A stretch of 58,733 nucleotides of DNA, from positions 1-58,733 of the forward strand of contig CALWHN010000002.1 of assembly GCA_944380415.1 (NCBI GenBank). Direction: 5' to 3'. The translations under genes were made by a program, and so were the position numbers. Under the pieces are notes generated by a model. It searched no databases. It saw only the letters and a program-made list of their open reading frames with translations, and was not told the DNA's origin. Origin of the DNA: an uncultured Clostridia bacterium. Lineage in GTDB: Bacteria; Bacillota; Clostridia; Christensenellales; UBA1242. Shown one piece after another: positions 15,654-54,047 of the stretch (position 1 is its first letter; each line of letters opens with the position of its first letter).

Positions 15654-15940
15654 AAGATAGAATAAAATCTTATAGCTTTTGGGTTGGCCTTTCTGGCGCA
15701 ATTGTTGCGTTTGTTTCTGCAATTGGAAAGGCGGTTGGCTTCATTCCAAACGAGGAACTAATCAGCAGCATAATCTTGGGATTTGCTGGAGTTTTAGTTG
15801 CGCTTGGAGTTGTTTCCAAGCCAAAATCGGCAGGGGAGGAAAAAACAGAAGAAACCTTGGCCGAGGAAAACGCCGAAAGCGAAACAAAAGCCGAAGAGGA
15901 AACAGGCGAAGGCCAAAGCGAAGAAACAAAAATTAATTAG
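15650..15940 (+). CDS. phage holin (two-TM, phage_holin_1-like)
   Basis: ATGA overlap with the upstream gene. SFWVGLSGAIVAFVSAIGKAVGF...IILGFAGVLVALGVVSKP gives two TM helices, followed by a charged C-tail. Confidence 0.55.
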   Translation: MKDRIKSYSFWVGLSGAIVAFVSAIGKAVGFIPNEELISSIILGFAGVLVALGVVSKPKSAGEEKTEETLAEENAESETKAEEETGEGQSEETKIN

Positions 15941-15987: not shown

Positions 15988-16726
15988 AAGCAATTGTTTC
16001 TGAAACGGTTGTTAAATTAAAACCCTGATCTTTCAACGTTTTAATTATATCTGGAAGGGCGTTTGCTGTTTCTTTGGTTGGGTGCATCAAAATTAAATCT
16101 CCGCCTGCTGCGTTTTTAACCGCGCGCGAATATATAAGTTCGCGGTCTTGGTCGCGCCAGTCAATTGTGTCGCGCGTCCACATAATTGTTGTGTATCCAA
16201 GTTCTTTGGCAACTTGAAGTGTTGTTTCGCTGTAGGAGCCGCTTGGCGGAGCAAAAAGCGTCATTTCAACATTTAAAAGCTCTTTTATTATGTCGGTTGT
16301 CTTTGAAATTTCGGTTTTGTTTATTTCAAGGCTTTTTTCCTTAAGGTCTGGGTGAGAATAGGCATGGTTTGCAATTTCGTGGCCGCCATCATAAATTTCC
16401 TTTAAAATTTCTGGATAGTCCTCGGCCCAAGAGCCGCCAATGAAGAACGTTGTTTTAACATCGTTTTCTTCAAGCGTTTCGAGCATTTTTGGAATGTATT
16501 CATTTCCCCAATAGACGTTTATCATGAGGCAGATGTTGTTGGATTCCGTGTTTCCTTGATAGATTGCCTCCTCTTGGGAAGAACTTGTAACATTTAAAAT
16601 TCCGCCTGCATAGGTTAGTGCAAAAAGTCCGATTAAAACGAAGCCAATTACACAGTTTGCAAAAATATTTCTAAACAAATTTGCCTTGTTCTTTTTGCTG
16701 TTATTAAAAAACCCACATATTTTCAT
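15986..16726 (-). CDS. polysaccharide deacetylase (NodB domain), sporulation PdaB-like
   Basis: N-terminal TM. INVYWGNEY...TTFFIGGSWAE...GHEIANHAYSHPDL is the NodB motif set with the PdaB-like first motif. Confidence 0.7.
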   Translation of the reverse strand: MKICGFFNNSKKNKANLFRNIFANCVIGFVLIGLFALTYAGGILNVTSSSQEEAIYQGNTESNNICLMINVYWGNEYIPKMLETLEENDVKTTFFIGGSWAEDYPEILKEIYDGGHEIANHAYSHPDLKEKSLEINKTEISKTTDIIKELLNVEMTLFAPPSGSYSETTLQVAKELGYTTIMWTRDTIDWRDQDRELIYSRAVKNAAGGDLILMHPTKETANALPDIIKTLKDQGFNLTTVSETIA

Positions 16727-16764
16727 ACATGGGTAATTTATGCTTTTTATTTCGCTAATAAAAC

Positions 16765-17028
16765 CTATTCTTTTGAAATTTTTTCCAAATATTGTTTAAC
16801 TGCCTGTGCTGCTTCTTGACTTTTAAAAGACTCTAAAATTTCTTTTGAAGCTTGGAGCTTTATTTTTTTGTCCTTTTCTTTTACAAAGTTGTAAGCAACA
16901 AGATTCAGCGGGGCAGAGCAGAACGGACAGAAATTGAAAATTTGATTTGGAACTTCAATCTTTAATTCTTTTCCGCAACTTTTACAGAAACTTTTTTTGT
17001 CAACTGTTTCAACACCAAATTTCATTGC
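16765..17028 (-). CDS. zinc-ribbon protein (CxxC...CxxC)
   Basis: Start chosen at 17028 (MKFGVE), after AAGGAG. CKSCG...CPFCS. 87 aa with a helical C-tail. Confidence 0.6.
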   Translation of the reverse strand, partial: AMKFGVETVDKKSFCKSCGKELKIEVPNQIFNFCPFCSAPLNLVAYNFVKEKDKKIKLQASKEILESFKSQEAAQAVKQYLEKISKE

Positions 17029-17035
17029 TTTCTCC

Positions 17036-18175
17036 TTATTCGAAAGTATATTGCTCTGTTCTTGGCGAAGGTTTTGCTTCTGGTTGAGCTGGTTTTGAAG
17101 TTCTGTAAATTTCAGATTCTTTTGTTTTGTAGGACTTGTCAACATAGAAGTCAATTGATCTTTCAAGGTCTTCTCTCATAACCATGTTTTCAAGCATTAC
17201 ATCGTTTAGCTTTCTGTAAAGTTCTTCGTCAATGTATGTGTCGTGGTTAACGCCAATTGTTAAGCAAATTGCTGTTCTGTCAAATGGGTCATCTTTAATT
17301 GTGTTTGTTGTTCTAATTGAATCTTGGTGGAGATCTTGGTTTTTCTCTTCAATTTTAAGTTCGATATATCTTTGATTAATTCCATATTTATCAACTTTTT
17401 GAGAAGGAGCAATTTGAGGCATGTCCGTGTAGCCAGTTGGGCTTATTAGCGTTTGCTCACGGAATTCTGAAATTCCTCTAACTTTTGAAGATGCTGTTAT
17501 AATTCTCTTTTTGGTGTAGAACCTTGAAGAACTTGTGTCAACAATGAGATGTTTTTCAACATTTGAATTGGAAAGTTTTGTCAACTTTGTTGCAATTGCG
17601 TTCGTTGTTGCAGAAATTGGAGCAGTGCTTGTAAAAAGCGAGGTCATATATTTATTTTCGTTTCCAGTAAGTTCGTTGTTGAAAATAAAATTTAGTTCAA
17701 CTTTTATGTCGCCATAATATCTGTCTAAAATTCCTAAATTTTGTGCAACAAGCTTGCTTGTTTCAATTGGCCATTTTAACTTTCTGTCGTCAAGATATTT
17801 TGTTTCTGTAATTCCGTTATACATGAACAAAATTTTTCTTTTATCTGCCTTGCGCAAAACTTCGGAAAGGTCGTTTGCAAAGATTTGAGCATAGTTGGAT
17901 TTTTCTTCGGTTGTTCCAGCAGGGTAGTAGAACAAATTTCCGCCAAGGAAAAATGCGCCGTCTTCCATATCGTTGATTCTCTTAATCTGATCCAAAAGAA
18001 TTTCAAGCCTTGGAGGGGTTTGAGGGTTTCCATAGAACAAATTTTGAATTGGAAGAAGCTCAATTTTTCTTTGACCTTTTGGAAGAACAATTGTTCCATA
18101 AAGGCCTTTTGCCTTTCTCTCTTCGGAAAGCCTTTGACTATAGGCCTTGTTGAGGACTCGTTGAAGTTTGTCCAT
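17036..18175 (-). CDS. degenerate (probably catalytically inactive) calcineurin-like phosphoesterase paralogue
   Basis: Strong GGAGGG RBS. Motif positions parallel the upstream gene, but the metal ligands are replaced: LLPIQNLFYG for TDNHWG, LGGNLF for NGDN, YNGITE for GNHD, VDTSS for DHGN. Confidence 0.5.
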   Translation of the reverse strand: MDKLQRVLNKAYSQRLSEERKAKGLYGTIVLPKGQRKIELLPIQNLFYGNPQTPPRLEILLDQIKRINDMEDGAFFLGGNLFYYPAGTTEEKSNYAQIFANDLSEVLRKADKRKILFMYNGITETKYLDDRKLKWPIETSKLVAQNLGILDRYYGDIKVELNFIFNNELTGNENKYMTSLFTSTAPISATTNAIATKLTKLSNSNVEKHLIVDTSSSRFYTKKRIITASSKVRGISEFREQTLISPTGYTDMPQIAPSQKVDKYGINQRYIELKIEEKNQDLHQDSIRTTNTIKDDPFDRTAICLTIGVNHDTYIDEELYRKLNDVMLENMVMREDLERSIDFYVDKSYKTKESEIYRTSKPAQPEAKPSPRTEQYTFE

Positions 18176-19316
18176 TTTTCCCTCCAGTTTTGTAGTAGTT
18201 ATTAATTAAATCGCGAACGGCTTTTCTATTGCCTGGGTTGAAATTGTTTCTTAGCTCTTCATATTTTTCCTTAAGCCTGTTCGCCTCTTCCATTCCAAAC
18301 CTCCAAAGTTCGTTTGGAATTGGCCTACAATCACAATAGACAGAGGTTTTGCTAAGGCTGCGCCTTTCTTTTTGGGTTGAACCAAGTAAATGTTCGTTCT
18401 TCTTTGTTCCAATTGTTATAAGCTTTAAATCGCTTGGAGCAGCTTCATATCTCTCTTCCAAAGCATACATTTCTTGGCCCATTGTTGCTGGAAGAATTAT
18501 AACAGAGATGTCATCGTTTATTGATTTTCCAGTTTCTGGGTCAATAACACGTTTGGTTCTATATTCTGCCATCATGTCTTGGTGGACATGGCCAAAGATT
18601 GCAACGTTTGCACCTTCGGATTTTGCAAGGTTAAGGCCCTTATCAAGCTTTGTTCCATCTCCGCCTTTTAAGCTGTTTCCGTGGTCTATAAAGATTTTAA
18701 CATCCTCATAGCCCTTTCTGTTGTCTGCTTTAAGCCTGATTGTTAGAAGCGTTGAAAATCTTGAATATTTTTCATAATAGGGCGTTCCAGCAAAGAAAGT
18801 TGCCAAAATATCCGTTCCAAAACTTTGGGTTCGCTTTCCGTTGTCGTGGTTTCCTGAATTTATGAAAAGCGTTTTGTTTTTAACTATTTCGTCCATGAAA
18901 ATTTCATACCAAAGTTTAAGTTCGATAACAGGAGAAAGGGCGTTGTCCAGCGGGCTGGAAACGCATTCTTCCGTGTTTATTGCATTGTTTCTGTTATCTC
19001 CGTTATAACCGAGATAGATGTTTGGACAATATTTTGCAATTAGCTGGGCAACGATTGAGGGCATGAAGTGGGATGAGATTGAACCCCAGTGGTTGTCTGT
19101 TAAAACTAAAAGACTGAAGTTGTCTCTGTTAGACATGTCATAGAAAAGGTGGTTAATTTGCTTTGGGGCTTCGTTTTTAATAATTTCGTTATAGGCCTTT
19201 GCAGCGGGATATTCCGGAAGTTCATCAGCTCTGAAAATGTTGGAAGTGAACCCTTTTTTTGTTGTAATTTTGGTGTTTTTCGCACCTGAAAAATCTTCAA
19301 TTGGTGGTGTTGCCAT
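18138..19316 (-). CDS. calcineurin-like metallophosphoesterase
   Basis: Start at 19316 (MATPPIE) after GAGGG, because the longer ORF-track start would lie inside the promoter -35. The motifs LTDNHWGS, NGDNRNN, SGNHDNG, IDHGN and FGHVHQD are intact. Confidence 0.7.
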   Translation of the reverse strand: MATPPIEDFSGAKNTKITTKKGFTSNIFRADELPEYPAAKAYNEIIKNEAPKQINHLFYDMSNRDNFSLLVLTDNHWGSISSHFMPSIVAQLIAKYCPNIYLGYNGDNRNNAINTEECVSSPLDNALSPVIELKLWYEIFMDEIVKNKTLFINSGNHDNGKRTQSFGTDILATFFAGTPYYEKYSRFSTLLTIRLKADNRKGYEDVKIFIDHGNSLKGGDGTKLDKGLNLAKSEGANVAIFGHVHQDMMAEYRTKRVIDPETGKSINDDISVIILPATMGQEMYALEERYEAAPSDLKLITIGTKKNEHLLGSTQKERRSLSKTSVYCDCRPIPNELWRFGMEEANRLKEKYEELRNNFNPGNRKAVRDLINNYYKTGGKNGQTSTSPQQGL

Positions 19317-19347
19317 GTGTCCCTCGCTAAGCTTTTTTTCTGAAAAT

Positions 19348-19376
19348 ATGATACTATAAATTTGAGAAAAAGTCAA
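19348..19376 (-). promoter_or_regulatory. sigma-A-type promoter of the phosphoesterase operon
   Basis: On the minus strand: TTGACT, 17-nt spacer, TATCAT. Confidence 0.55.
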
Positions 19377-19477: not shown

Positions 19478-20320
19478 TTAACTGTTTTTGTTTGTTGGAT
19501 ATTCATAAATATTTGCCCGCTTAGTTTCAGTTTCAATGTCAACTTGGCTTTGGTCTACAACAAGCGAGAAAATTTTGTTTGAGAGTTTGCTTTGTTTTGA
19601 ATGTTCTGCCTCCATAATGTGGTCTAAAAGCCCAGACGAATAGAAACTGAAATATGAATCCTTTGAAATGATAATGTGATCAACAAGGCCAACGCCAAGG
19701 ACGGAGAGGGCAGAGAAGATTTTTGATGTTGCAGAGATGTCTTCTCCGGAAGGTTGGGGATTTCCGTCTGGGTGGTTGTGGGTAACAATTACAAGGCTTG
19801 CGTTGTTTTTTATTGCAAATTCTGAAATTTTTCTGATGTCAAGCGAAATTTTGTTAACTGTTCCATCTGCAATTTTGTCAACTTTAATAAGTTCACTTTT
19901 CGGCGTTAGGCTTGCCATGTAAAAATTTTCGTTTGTTTTCTTGTCTAAAAACGCTCTAAAGAAATCTATAATCTGAGCGGGATTTGAAAGAAGCTGGGTT
20001 TGCTTTGTTTTTGTCTGTTCCATGTTGTAGTGAAAAATTTTACAGATTGATTTTAGCGTTCTTGCCGCAACTGGGCCAATTCCTTTGACGCTTAAAATTC
20101 TGTCATAGTCCGCTTCTAAAACATCGCCGATTGTTCCAAACTCATCTAAAAGGTTGTGGGCGAGGGGATTTGTGTCCTTCCTTGGAATGCAAAAGGTTAA
20201 AATATATTCCAAAATTTGAATTTCGCTCAAATTTTTTAAATCGGAAGTGTAAATCAAATTTTGAAGCCTTTTTCTGTGGTTAGCGTGGATTTGGCTTTTG
20301 TTTTTCTCTTTTGTCTCCAT
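19478..20320 (-). CDS. radC: RadC-like JAB/MPN domain protein
   Basis: HhH region (SVKGIGPVAARTL) plus the JAB motif HNHPDGNPQPSGEDI. About 50 extra residues at the C-terminus. Confidence 0.8.
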   Translation of the reverse strand: METKEKNKSQIHANHRKRLQNLIYTSDLKNLSEIQILEYILTFCIPRKDTNPLAHNLLDEFGTIGDVLEADYDRILSVKGIGPVAARTLKSICKIFHYNMEQTKTKQTQLLSNPAQIIDFFRAFLDKKTNENFYMASLTPKSELIKVDKIADGTVNKISLDIRKISEFAIKNNASLVIVTHNHPDGNPQPSGEDISATSKIFSALSVLGVGLVDHIIISKDSYFSFYSSGLLDHIMEAEHSKQSKLSNKIFSLVVDQSQVDIETETKRANIYEYPTNKNS

Positions 20321-30323: not shown

Positions 30324-30989
30324 ATGCCAATTAATATTGCAATTGACGGAACGGCTGGAAGCGGGAAGGGAACGCTTGCCAAGCAGCTTGCAAAAAAACT
30401 TGGGTTTGGCTGTTTGGACACGGGCGCAATTTATCGAAGCGTTGCATATTACATGGTTGAAAATGGCGTTGACCTTTCTAAAGGCGAAAACATTGCAAAG
30501 GCAGTTAAAAAAATTAACTTCAAAGTCGTCTTTGAAGCTGACGAAAACGGAAACAAAGTTCAAAAGAACATTTTAGATGGAACAGATTTGGGCGAAAAAA
30601 TTAGGACGGAGGAGATTAGCCTTGCCTCTTCAATTGTTTCCCAAGTTAAGGAAGTTAGAGAATTTGCAACAAAAATTCAACACGAAATTGCAGGCAGCTT
30701 TGATGTTGTTGTTGAAGGACGAGATATTGGAACGGTTGTCCTTCCAAATGCAAACTACAAATTTTTCCTAACAGCTTCGCCAGAGGTTAGGGCAAGGCGA
30801 AGGCTTAAACAGTTGAATCTTCCAGAAGAAAATTATGAAAGCATCCTTGAAGAAATTGTTGAAAGAGATAGGAGAGACATGACAAGAGCCCTCTCTCCGC
30901 TTAAAGCTGCAGAAGACGCTGTTTATATCGACAACTCAAATCAATTGCCAGAGGAAACCTTAAGGGAAATGTTGTCTTACATTAAATAG
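30324..30989 (+). CDS. cmk: cytidylate kinase
   Basis: IAIDGTAGSGKGTLAK P-loop, 221 aa. Confidence 0.9.
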   Translation: MPINIAIDGTAGSGKGTLAKQLAKKLGFGCLDTGAIYRSVAYYMVENGVDLSKGENIAKAVKKINFKVVFEADENGNKVQKNILDGTDLGEKIRTEEISLASSIVSQVKEVREFATKIQHEIAGSFDVVVEGRDIGTVVLPNANYKFFLTASPEVRARRRLKQLNLPEENYESILEEIVERDRRDMTRALSPLKAAEDAVYIDNSNQLPEETLREMLSYIK

Positions 30990-31708
30990 CCGCCATCAAC
31001 AACAATTGTTTGGCCAGTTATATATTTTTGTGTTGCCAAAAAAAGAATTGTTTCGGCAACTTCCCTCGGGGTTCCAAAGCGGCCAAGAGATGTTTCAGAT
31101 GAGAACATCTCTTTTTCTTCTTGCGAAAGGTTTTTGTTCATTTCTGTTTCAATTGCTCCTGGGGCAACGCAGTTGACCAATATGTTGGAGGGTCCAAGCT
31201 CTTTAGAGAGAGCAGAGCAAAGGCCAATTACGCCCGCTTTAGAGGCAGAATAAAGGCTTTCTAACGCCGCGCCGCTGACACCCCAAATTGAAGAGACGGC
31301 AACAATGTTCCCTTCCTTGTTTGAAAGCATCGACGGAACGGTTGCCTTTGTTATGTTGTAAACCCCTTTTAAATTTGTTCCAATAACCCTGTCAAAATCG
31401 TCATCGCTTGTGTCTATAAAAAGTTTTGGTTGAGAAATTCCGGCGTTTGCAACAAGAACATCAATCTTTCCAAAAATTGAAAGAGCAAAGTTAATCATTT
31501 TTTCGCAATCCTCAAAATTTGTAACATCGCATTTGTAGGCTTCGCAAATGAGGCTTGGGAATTTTTCTTTAATTTCTTGCCTTAGGGCAAAGGCCTCTCT
31601 TTCTGAGGTTTTGTAATTTATTAAAACATTGAACCCATTTTCTGCAAAAACTCTTGCACACTCTGCGCCAATTCCCTTGGATGCGCCCGTTATAATTACA
31701 CTTTTCAT
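30977..31708 (-). CDS. short-chain dehydrogenase/reductase (FabG-like)
   Basis: TGASKGIG, NAG and YSASKAG motifs. It overlaps the cmk 3' end convergently by 13 nt. Confidence 0.8.
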   Translation of the reverse strand: MKSVIITGASKGIGAECARVFAENGFNVLINYKTSEREAFALRQEIKEKFPSLICEAYKCDVTNFEDCEKMINFALSIFGKIDVLVANAGISQPKLFIDTSDDDFDRVIGTNLKGVYNITKATVPSMLSNKEGNIVAVSSIWGVSGAALESLYSASKAGVIGLCSALSKELGPSNILVNCVAPGAIETEMNKNLSQEEKEMFSSETSLGRFGTPREVAETILFLATQKYITGQTIVVDGGYLM

Positions 31709-44240: not shown

Positions 44241-44954
44241 CTAATTTATTTGCACTAGTTTGTTTTCAACAAGGTCACAAGAGGTCAAATAATATTTAAC
44301 ACCTTCCATTTCTGTTATAAATTTAAAGCGGCTTCTATTTCCGTGGAGGTGGCCATAGACAACTGAACTTACGCCATATTTTTTAAACAGGTCTGTAAAT
44401 GCGCTTCTTTCAAGTTTTGAATTGAAGGGAGGGTAGTGGATCATACAAATAAGCTTGGCGTCCTTTCCTTCTTCTAAAAGTTTTTCCCTTGCTGCGTTTG
44501 CACTTGAAAGTGAAAGTTCAAGCCGTATTATTTCGCGGTTAAAAATTTTTTCGTCTTCAGCAGTTTTGAAGTTGTTTTCAGGAACTTGCCAGCCCCTTGT
44601 CCCGCAAAATATGTAGTTTTCAATCACAACATGGTCGTTTTGAAGGGCAAAGAAATTTTCCGGAAGAAGCGCCCTTACGCCCGAAATGCTTTTCCACCAA
44701 TAATCGTGGTTACCTCTGATTATAATTTTCTTTCCCGGCAAGGCGGAAATTAGGTCAATGTCTGGCTTTGCATCTTCCAGTTTCATGGCCCAACTGATAT
44801 CGCCAGCAATTAAAACAACGTCTTCGTCTGAAACTTTTTCTTTCCAATCTTCAATAATTTTGTCAACATAATTGTCCCAAGCAGGGCCAAAGATGTCCAT
44901 TGGCTTGGGATTGTTGATGCTAAGGTGCAGATCGCTGATTGAAAAAATTTTCAA
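44241..44954 (-). CDS. metallophosphoesterase
   Basis: SDLHLS, AGDISW, RGNHDYWW and GHLHG motifs. Confidence 0.8.
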   Translation of the reverse strand: MKIFSISDLHLSINNPKPMDIFGPAWDNYVDKIIEDWKEKVSDEDVVLIAGDISWAMKLEDAKPDIDLISALPGKKIIIRGNHDYWWKSISGVRALLPENFFALQNDHVVIENYIFCGTRGWQVPENNFKTAEDEKIFNREIIRLELSLSSANAAREKLLEEGKDAKLICMIHYPPFNSKLERSAFTDLFKKYGVSSVVYGHLHGNRSRFKFITEMEGVKYYLTSCDLVENKLVQIN

Positions 44955-53321: not shown

Positions 53322-54047
53322 ATGAGAAGAGTTTTTATAACAGGGGATATACATTGCGACTTAACAGACCTTTTTGACAGGGTTAAAAATTTAAACTTAA
53401 AGAAGGAAGATGTTCTAATTTTGCTTGGCGATAGCGGGCTTGAATATTATTCTTTCTTTTCCAAACCAAATCTTTCTTCTTGGGACGATCGCGTTCAAAA
53501 GAGGCTTAGAGAAATGATTCCTTCAACAATCATATGTGTTCAGGGAAATCATGAAGTTCCTTTTAAAGAAATGCACGGAAATGATTCAAGAATTTTTGGC
53601 GCAAGCGCTAAGGAAAGCAACGGAATTTACTTTGTTCACAGCGGCCAAGTTTTATATATCGACGGAAAATCTTTCCTTGTTATCGGCGGGGCATATTCAA
53701 TTGACAAAGAATATCGCCAAAGAAAGAACCACCCATATTGGGAAGGAGAGGAGCTTTCAAACAATGAAATGAAAGAAATCTTTTCAAAAATTAGAGGAAA
53801 GAAGTTCAACTATGTTTTAAGCCATACATCTCCGCGTTCTGTAATGCCAGAGGAGGCTCTTTTCGATTTAAATGAGGAGCCAGAAAACAGGACAGAAAAC
53901 TTTTTGGAGATTGTTAAAAATAACATTGAATTTGACAGATGGTTTTGCGGTCATTTCCACATTAACAAAACAGAAAATAAATTTAATTTTCTCTCGGACA
54001 AAGTTGAAACAATTGTTCTTTCTAAAAACCAAGAACTTTCAGATTAA
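53322..54047 (+). CDS. metallophosphoesterase
   Basis: TGDIHCD, LGDSGLEY, QGNHE and CGHFH motifs. TTTACA-17-TAAATT promoter upstream. Confidence 0.8.
   Translation: MRRVFITGDIHCDLTDLFDRVKNLNLKKEDVLILLGDSGLEYYSFFSKPNLSSWDDRVQKRLREMIPSTIICVQGNHEVPFKEMHGNDSRIFGASAKESNGIYFVHSGQVLYIDGKSFLVIGGAYSIDKEYRQRKNHPYWEGEELSNNEMKEIFSKIRGKKFNYVLSHTSPRSVMPEEALFDLNEEPENRTENFLEIVKNNIEFDRWFCGHFHINKTENKFNFLSDKVETIVLSKNQELSD

Follow-up and report, generated by a model that had tools for sequence, protein, structure and literature searches.

An intact metallophosphoesterase, its catalytically dead paralogue and a zinc-ribbon protein make up a conserved three-gene unit in a reduced-genome family of Christensenellales

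We analysed three tightly packed minus-strand genes, g1, g2 and g3, in a 58,733-nucleotide stretch of DNA from an uncultured Clostridia bacterium (assembly GCA_944380415.1, contig CALWHN010000002.1). This whole stretch is called the window hereafter, and all coordinates are window positions unless another contig or locus is named. The three genes, referred to jointly as the trio, encode an intact metallophosphoesterase (MPE), a catalytically dead paralogue with the MPE fold and a small protein with a zinc ribbon and a helical tail. The source genome (G000, of which the window is contig C2) is 0.85 Mb (851 kb) in size and an estimated 96% complete, and it holds exactly one copy of the trio. Family relatives have genomes of 0.8–1.3 Mb, and the sequencing runs that contain the window stretch are mostly chicken-gut metagenomes. 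The genus of the window is labelled g1 in our genus numbering, a label distinct from the gene g1.

The trio as one inherited unit

The arrangement of the genes supports the three-gene minus-strand operon that an earlier note on this DNA had described. The g1 and g2 reading frames overlap by 38 nt and a GGAGGG ribosome-binding site (RBS) lies four bases ahead of the g2 ATG, both as described there. The g2 stop is followed directly by GGAG, and a gap of 10 nt (TAA GGAGAAAGCA ATG) separates g2 from g3. This stop/start overlap and the RBS spacing agree with an operon. The zinc ribbon and helical tail that the note saw in g3 are present, but its length of 87 residues is that of 87 codons (86 amino acids plus the stop) and its 8-nt gap ahead of g3 is in fact 10 nt. 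Four chicken-gut metatranscriptomes yielded short contigs that cover g1, g2, g3 and the two junctions between them, with one contig spanning the g2/g3 junction. This agrees with co-transcription in vivo, though carry-over of library DNA is possible. The proposed sigma-70-like promoter is indeed found 32–60 nt upstream of the g1 ATG, past the radC stop codon and a T-run. However, the scan of the region yielded 11 sites against 11.1 expected from shuffled sequence, so that only its position speaks for this site. No GAAC-N4-GTTC (LexA/Cheo) box was visible upstream of g1, and SOS regulation of the trio was rejected on this ground.

To follow the trio in other genomes, we searched the genomes of one reduced-genome Christensenellales family and inspected the open reading frames (ORFs) of ~22 loci, which belong to 12 genera. 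The same layout was found in ~20 of them: an MPE of 365–420 amino acids (aa), a second protein of 360–430 aa and then a g3-like protein of 66–92 aa, in which a CxxC...NFCPxCGxPL ribbon is followed by a helix. The g3 protein itself matched only the DZR and Zn_ribbon families of Pfam, and weakly. The neighbours of these loci are unrelated and mostly housekeeping genes (nrdDG, lysS, recR, relA, eno, prfA/prmC), while the order RadC, g1, g2, g3, deacetylase beside ruvC recurs in relatives taken from protein databases. The three genes, which the earlier note took to belong to a single system, are thus kept together in other genomes, and their co-conservation is far beyond chance. In four genomes of three genera (loci L085–L088, in G168, G120, G079 and G106), g1 and g2 are fused into a single gene for 829–931 aa, again followed by g3, which argues, in the manner of a Rosetta stone, for physical association. 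In maximum-likelihood trees, the g1-like and g2-like proteins show the same major clades, and the two trees are congruent. Both large proteins also carry the long C-terminal regions that had earlier been noticed and left unplaced; these include long helices (residues 335–377 of g1 and 317–356 of g2) and extend beyond the length of the 260-aa phage MPEs, which lack them. A helical bundle shared by g1, g2 and the g3 tail would be a reasonable model of assembly. Thus, an intact MPE, a dead MPE and a zinc-ribbon protein are inherited as one unit that is apparently co-transcribed. That the three proteins form one complex is, in our judgement, much more likely than the full account of their function proposed below.

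The g1 protein is an intact MPE with all the calcineurin-like motifs, as the earlier note had read it: DNH (D74, H76), GDN (G106, D107), GNHD (G155–D158), H212 and GHVH (H243, H245). D74, H76, G106, D107, G155, N156, H157, H243 and H245 are invariant in 14 very divergent g1 homologues. All but one of these, a close relative with 58% identity, are 17–27% identical to the window g1. H212 is present in at least 90% of the 14. Its score against Pfam Metallophos (PF00149; 23.9 bits, cut-off 21.5) places g1 in the calcineurin-like superfamily, and 11 of the 14 family members match the same profile. The best specific match is to the phage family phrog_7339 ('DNA repair exonuclease'; E 4.5e-8, residues 61–294). 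The MPE core (~60–295) follows ~55 aa of low-confidence N-terminus and precedes a beta/helical extension (298–377). In Foldseek searches with the AlphaFold2 (AF2) model, the best fold matches in the PDB were Mre11 proteins. Scans against NCBIfam and Pfam gave no match of g1 to TIGR00619 or SbcD_C and a weak one to YfcE (NCBIfam, E 0.023), and g1 fell into no well-characterised housekeeping family. Its motif I, D-x-H-I/W-G, resembles the one of SbcD/Mre11.

In g2, the sequences QNLF, GGNL, NGITE and DTSS sit column for column under the g1 motifs in a profile–profile alignment, in keeping with the claim that g2 has the same motif spacing with its metal ligands replaced. In every lineage, g2 has other residues in place of the histidines of motifs I, III and V and the asparagine of motif III, and the GD is kept in some only; thus g2 lacks the metal ligands of a calcineurin-like enzyme. 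Because the His ligands are gone in every g2 lineage while the g1 ligands are invariant, the inactivation is ancient, yet g2 is conserved; its mean column identity is 62% within its close family. No family match to g2 was found in Pfam, PHROGs, NCBIfam or PADLOC. Nevertheless, its fold is that of an MPE. With the AF2 model of g2 (pLDDT, the confidence score of AF2, of 80), Foldseek matches in the PDB were almost all of the MPE fold down to E of about 0.04, including YydB (E 2e-6), GAP50 (which is inactive), Mre11, DP1 and Dpb2. The matches in BFVD were small phage MPEs (E 7.6e-14, target-normalised template-modelling (TM) score 0.65–0.72). The alpha-beta-beta-alpha sandwich of the MPEs is therefore indicated for g2 by AF2, Foldseek, BFVD and hhalign alike. 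Behind its long helix, g2 ends in a disordered tail with a conserved terminal Y/F-x-F-E motif. This motif, which follows a variable low-complexity linker and looks like a short docking peptide, is found in the type A proteins (see below) and lacking in types B and C and in the sister-genus genome G014.

The relationship between g1 and g2 depends on the breadth of the profiles compared. When close families were aligned with hhalign (19 g1 homologues, A1, versus 27 g2 homologues, A2), the probability was 0.4%. The absence of paralogy that this value suggested was overturned by the broad profiles A5 and A4, made from 14 g1-like and 14 g2-like proteins from across the family, which aligned over 277 columns with 99.5% probability (E 2.9e-23). 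In G014, the active and the dead protein (P0064 and P0065) matched each other by BLASTP (E 3e-11, 22% identity over 276 residues), and their motifs can be read side by side: LSDLHIGS / NGD / GNHE / HGTG / GHTH in the former and LNDLRIGS / NGG / SDDE / HGKG / GNFG in the latter. A homologue search with P0065 returned no matches, and searches of PDB sequences with A1, A2 and A5 returned nothing meaningful. Taken together, these results show that g1 and g2 are ancient paralogues of a small phage-type MPE, and g2 can be regarded as the pseudo-enzyme that it had been proposed to be.

Downstream, 38 nt separate g3 from a deacetylase gene on the same strand. This spacer contains a CATAAATTA element, which we take to resemble a -10 element of the SigE/SigK type. 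A terminator-like hairpin followed by a T-run overlaps the deacetylase start codon and could modulate either read-through from the trio into the deacetylase gene or translation of that gene. The features of the locus are listed in Table 1, together with other genes of the source genome that are discussed below.

Table 1. Positions of the trio and of other features (window positions unless another contig of the source genome is named)
Feature	Position	Strand	Remarks
g1, intact MPE	18138-19316	-	392 aa from the ATG of MATPPIEDF; ORF open from 19376
g2, catalytically dead MPE-fold paralogue	17036-18175	-	379 aa
g3, CxxC...CxxC zinc ribbon and amphipathic helical tail	16765-17025	-	86 aa plus stop
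Sigma-70-like promoter TTGACT-17-TATCAT	19348-19376	-	upstream of g1; consensus scan, 10/12 positions
Terminal Y/F-x-F-E motif of g2	17036-17050		
Terminator-like hairpin and T-run	16711-16734		overlaps deacetylase start codon (ATG at 16726)
RadC gene	19478-20320		
Further MPE gene	44241-44954		
Further MPE gene	53322-54047		
Further MPE gene	C32:1-1107		lipoprotein-like
Spo0A_C-domain gene	C9:19313-19621		
Spo0A_C-domain gene	C15:3250-3561		

Distribution and replacement of the trio at a fixed slot

Three complementary profiles detected a g1-like gene in all 14 genomes of the window genus and in ~94 of 301 family genomes, which represent about two dozen of 58 genera. About two thirds of the family genomes lack the trio, many of which are 97–100% complete. 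No trio was found in the other families sampled of the order; when the g2 profile was run against 400 genomes of the order, the matches outside the family were only ~260-aa prophage MPEs beside terminase or portal genes. In an exhaustive HMMER search of 1.84 billion representative proteins with the g2-like profile, the full-length g2-like clusters numbered only a few dozen, besides a few fusions; the remaining matches were mostly proteins of ~250–280 aa, with hundreds of ~260 aa. An apparent absence of the trio from 8 of the 14 congeners was rejected, as these genomes carry the types B and C described next, which narrow profiles had missed.

In all 14 congeners, a trio fills the slot between radC, which is divergent from ruvC, and the deacetylase gene, and it does so in three forms. 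Type A is found in the window and in G001, G005, G007, G008 and G010, type B in G002–G004 and G009, and type C in G006 and G011–G013. Between types, the g1 proteins are about 20% identical and the g2 proteins 14–22%, and tblastn at E 1e-3 gave no match between types for either, whereas the corresponding values are 79–92% for RuvC, 66–73% for RuvA and 58–74% for the deacetylase. Within type A, g1 identity is 58–79%. The type A locus L003 has a RuvC 92% and a deacetylase 70–72% identical to those of type B genomes, as compared with 86% and 65% to those of the type A window. Thus, cassette type does not track the similarity of the flanks.

In the g1 and g2 trees, each type joins trios from outside the genus. 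Type A is found with those of g46 and g29 and some of g31; the remaining g31 trios go with type B, as do those of g51 and some of g44; and type C is joined by g59 and the rest of g44. This clustering across genera has support of 99–100 for types A and B and 84–93 for type C. The clades of types A and B have 98–100% support. That of type C has 100% in the g2 tree and weak support (46/90) in the g1 tree, where type C forms a long branch. In addition, the genera g31, g44 and g56 each hold two trio types. Because each type clusters with trios of other genera, the types predate the genera, and whole cassettes have been replaced in situ. Such replacement is typical of conflict-related loci, for example those for restriction, capsule and immunity. 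Conservation of the deacetylase does not depend on the type of trio ahead of it. RadC is 36–50% identical both within and between types (RuvC of the same congeners, 79–92%) and is uniformly fast-evolving whichever type is present. That RadC belongs to the cassette was considered and rejected, since its identity does not differ between same-type and other-type comparisons and the loci of other genera lack it.

The earlier note had taken the position of the trio between a phage-like block and a RadC-like gene as a sign of defence cargo. With a TIGR00608 score above the cut-off, RadC looks like an ordinary member of its family, and it adjoins ruvCAB, and the capsid gene of the phage-like block is present in 31 of 41 relatives. 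Near the trios of other genera there were no homologues of capsid, portal, RadC or deacetylase; beyond the window genus, therefore, neither the phage-like block nor RadC nor the deacetylase is linked to the trio. Since none of the three accompanies the trio in other genera, the locus is not a defence island, and this part of the earlier argument is not supported. Within the genus, G004 has the trio on one contig and the block on another. On contig C1 of that genome (L012), the end of the block joins directly a homologue of window 30977–31708 (in the window the two lie at 15940 and ~31000). Because of this junction, a 15-kb segment comprising the deacetylase, the trio, radC, ruvCAB, queA and tgt has been rearranged within the window genus.

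Clear defence genes numbered two among 20 neighbour proteins from ~17 loci (2 of ~17 loci). In L062 (4296–7078), the trio lies directly downstream of a gene for a type II N6-methyltransferase and then an unannotated 373-aa ORF, which may encode the endonuclease that belongs with this methyltransferase. In L047 (5025–6996), it lies directly downstream of a candidate HAD-family PDC-S34 gene (E 1e-115) and an overlapping gene for 376 aa.

Proposed function and competing explanations

We tentatively favour the view that the trio encodes a phage-derived MPE heterodimer with a single active site and a zinc-ribbon adaptor, which probably acts as a nuclease in conflict with phages or mobile elements. 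In this proposal, g1 and g2 would pair as a pseudo-symmetric, Mre11/DP1-like dimer with one binuclear-metal active site in g1, and g2 would be the structural or regulatory half. The g3 protein would dock through its helical tail onto the C-terminal helices of g1 and g2 that phage MPEs lack, and would serve as a nucleic-acid-binding or recognition adaptor, as zinc modules dock on the MPE-fold B-subunits. The substrate would most likely be DNA, in the form of ends or structures; this is probable because of the closest folds and the SbcD-like D-x-H-I/W-G of motif I. The role would be to restrict or exclude incoming DNA, of phages or otherwise, rather than housekeeping repair or sporulation; a role in conflict is suggested because cassettes have been exchanged whole between lineages, the distribution is patchy and the ancestry lies in phages. 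The hypothesis of defence or conflict offered in the earlier note thus keeps its plausibility through cassette replacement, patchiness, phage ancestry and the two defence neighbours, but not through the context of the locus.

Several observations weigh against this interpretation. Most trio neighbourhoods consist of housekeeping genes, no match of g1, g2 or g3 was found in PADLOC-DB v2 at E<=1, and the trio has no sensor, ATPase or toxin-like partner as in known nuclease defence systems. Its universality in the window genus (14/14) is also compatible with a useful housekeeping function that evolves fast. The quality of the g1 model is mediocre (pLDDT 64), with low Foldseek TM scores against PDB entries (~0.3). 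DNA as the substrate is only a preference, because MPEs act on nucleotides too, as does the Cal domain of PUA-Cal-HAD, which depletes deoxynucleoside triphosphates (dNTPs). A bolder form of the proposal strikes us as doubtful, namely that the trio is an unrecognised prokaryotic immune or exclusion module in which the dead paralogue and the free zinc-ribbon protein set the specificity for target or partner. In this form, the three co-adapted genes would pass between species as allelic cassettes of one chromosomal slot, and phages or the cell's own gene-transfer particles would exert the balancing or diversifying selection on them.

The main biochemical rival is a nucleotide-directed activity: a phosphodiesterase or phosphohydrolase acting on (d)NTPs/(d)NDPs, NAD or cyclic (oligo)nucleotides, which would be an immune effector or signal quencher that g2 and g3 regulate or for which they act as sensors. 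The MPE fold is common to phosphodiesterases of the CpdA/Rv0805/YfcE type, and g1 has the weak YfcE match; the best BFVD matches of g2 are labelled 'ApaH type'; and HAD-family genes stand just upstream of the trio in L047 and divergent from it in L011. We consider this activity unlikely. HAD adjacency is confined to these two loci, the trio has no PUA, CARF, SAVED or cyclase partner, and the closest solved folds are Mre11, DP1 and the B-subunits rather than cyclic-nucleotide phosphodiesterases.

The main biological rival, which we likewise regard as unlikely, is a housekeeping accessory of DNA metabolism, that is, a lineage-specific exonuclease resembling SbcD/Mre11 or DP1/B-subunits that serves repair, recombination or replication in these minimal genomes and owes its diversity to relaxed constraint and rapid evolution instead of conflict. 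The trio adjoins ruvCAB and radC in the window genus and is universal there, its neighbours elsewhere are housekeeping genes, and the transcript contigs from gut samples would suit such a role, as would the docking of MPE-fold B-subunits on zinc modules (3flo, 4y97) and the weak match of type B g1 to the PolD small subunit (PRK04036, E 5e-5). Moreover, the source genome has no canonical SbcD; when the whole genome was scanned with TIGR00619, the one match was an unrelated lipoprotein MPE on contig C32 that scored below the cut-off. However, bona fide SbcD is present in 61 of 301 family genomes, and 11 of these 61 also carry the trio, so that in at least 11 genomes there is no simple replacement; the trio as a substitute for SbcD was rejected on this basis. 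The absence of the trio from about two thirds of the family genomes, complete ones included, also argues against a housekeeping role, as do cassette types that are independent of their flanks and interleave between genera, and the lack of a visible LexA box upstream.

Besides the C32 gene, two further stand-alone MPE genes are present in the window, as had been noted earlier, and none of the three matches the trio profiles. One of the three resembles TIGR03729 weakly (E 3e-9, far below the cut-off) and one has no NCBIfam match. The C32 protein looks like a lipoprotein, with a lipobox-like SGC motif followed by LQLTDIHIG.

It is quite improbable that the trio is a DNA-processing factor of the neighbouring phage-particle operon, similar to that of a gene-transfer agent and derived from the small MPE gene of phage packaging modules. 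In type A genomes the trio lies ~1–6 kb from the particle block, and the related 260-aa phage MPEs adjoin TerS, TerL or portal genes. However, the two are on separate contigs in G004, no capsid or portal homologue was found within ~7 kb of the trio in any other genus, and the capsid gene occurs in all 25 family genomes sampled, as compared with only ~31% for the trio, which suggests that the presence of trio and block is uncorrelated across genomes in the present sample.

The sporulation alternative of the earlier note, now framed as a sporulation or germination function co-expressed with the downstream deacetylase, has become very unlikely: the deacetylase, which is on the same strand and resembles YlxY and PdaB with scores below their cut-offs, and SpoIIP, which follows the trio in G014, are the only sporulation-type neighbours and are absent from trio neighbourhoods in all other genera, the deacetylase is conserved regardless of trio type, g1, g2 and g3 have no signal peptide or membrane segment, and Spo0A, although present in these genomes, is uninformative because it is kept in every family relative, many of which have no trio.

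A 2.6-kb module that is kept and repeatedly replaced in genomes of 0.8–1.3 Mb implies strong selection. As a defence or exclusion nuclease, the trio would enlarge the set of bacterial anti-phage systems by a compact architecture that has no ATPase, and it would give a function to the widespread phage MPE family annotated as 'DNA repair exonuclease'; as an accessory of repair or replication, it would be a bacterial analogue of the interaction between DP1/B-subunits and zinc modules. Either way, types A, B and C provide a ready-made natural experiment on the co-adaptation of subunits.

Comparison with known systems

No description of the trio architecture turned up in the literature that was searched, and the view that it matches no described system is supported by the lack of PADLOC, NCBIfam or specific Pfam matches. 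New here are the proof of paralogy, the natural fusions, the replacement among three types, the congruent trees, the SbcD co-occurrence test and the evidence of expression.

The closest relatives of g1 and g2 in both sequence and fold are the small phage MPEs of phrog_7339 (~260 aa), which branch among trio sequences in the g1 tree and share the signature NGD..NNA..SVSN..P.EQ with the trio MPEs. They are, however, single genes with neither a dead paralogue nor a zinc-ribbon partner, and they are without the ~55-aa N-terminal and ~100-aa C-terminal extensions of g1. The core of g1 matches phrog_7339 and the two groups interleave in the tree, but g1 has 392 aa, as compared with ~260 aa, and obligatory partners. 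Relatives in cultured phages include Bacillus phage Slash gp29, Eggerthella phage EL753P1 gp15 and proteins of Geobacillus phages, which are called 'DNA repair exonuclease' or 'metallophosphoesterase' by annotation alone. Prophage relatives (~260 aa) adjoin TerS/TerL or portal genes (L066–L073, L089 and L090, phages included). The Slash gene lies ~2.5 kb before HNH and TerL, and that of EL753P1 lies among unannotated genes whose size and order are like those of a head/packaging module.

Mre11/SbcD has the MPE fold and all five motifs in common with g1, and it provides the best solved-structure matches of g1 and some of the best of g2, at TM scores of only ~0.3. Mre11 works as a dimer, which the g1–g2 pair, fused in some genomes, could mimic, although one half of this presumed dimer is dead. 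Neither the operon nor ~25 neighbourhoods contained the Rad50/SbcC-type ABC ATPase with which Mre11/SbcD is partnered.

In DP1 and the polymerase B-subunits, active (DP1) and inactivated (B-subunit) MPE folds both serve as subunits of complexes, and partners bind through a zinc module and helices. DP1, Dpb2, Pol31 and the Pol alpha entries of B-subunit and C-terminal domain (3flo, 4y97) are among the Foldseek matches of the trio MPEs. However, only type B g1 matches the PolD small subunit, with 22.5 bits against a cut-off of 445, no polymerase catalytic subunit gene adjoins the trio and no OB-fold domain was detected. The likeness is architectural only.

Calcineurin-like enzymes are proven immune effectors. 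Two MPE effectors of anti-phage systems are Calcineurin-CE of PUA-Cal-HAD/Metis, in which a PUA-like sensor is fused to the Cal domain, and YydB, from the YydD-YydB pair of B. subtilis; no other PDB fold matched g2 better than that of YydB (9a6c_B). As compared with YydD-YydB and PUA-Cal-HAD/Metis, the trio lacks an SMC-like ATPase, a PUA domain as sensor and an obligatory HAD partner, HAD genes adjoining it in two loci only, and these systems in turn have no counterpart of its dead paralogue and zinc ribbon. Most known pseudo-enzyme partners of MPE nucleases belong to archaeal and eukaryotic polymerases. The trio is thus a variant within the world of MPE nucleases and phosphoesterases, not a new fold or chemistry; what sets it apart is a bacterial pair of active and dead MPEs that is kept as a unit with a free zinc-ribbon subunit, fused in some lineages and swapped whole.

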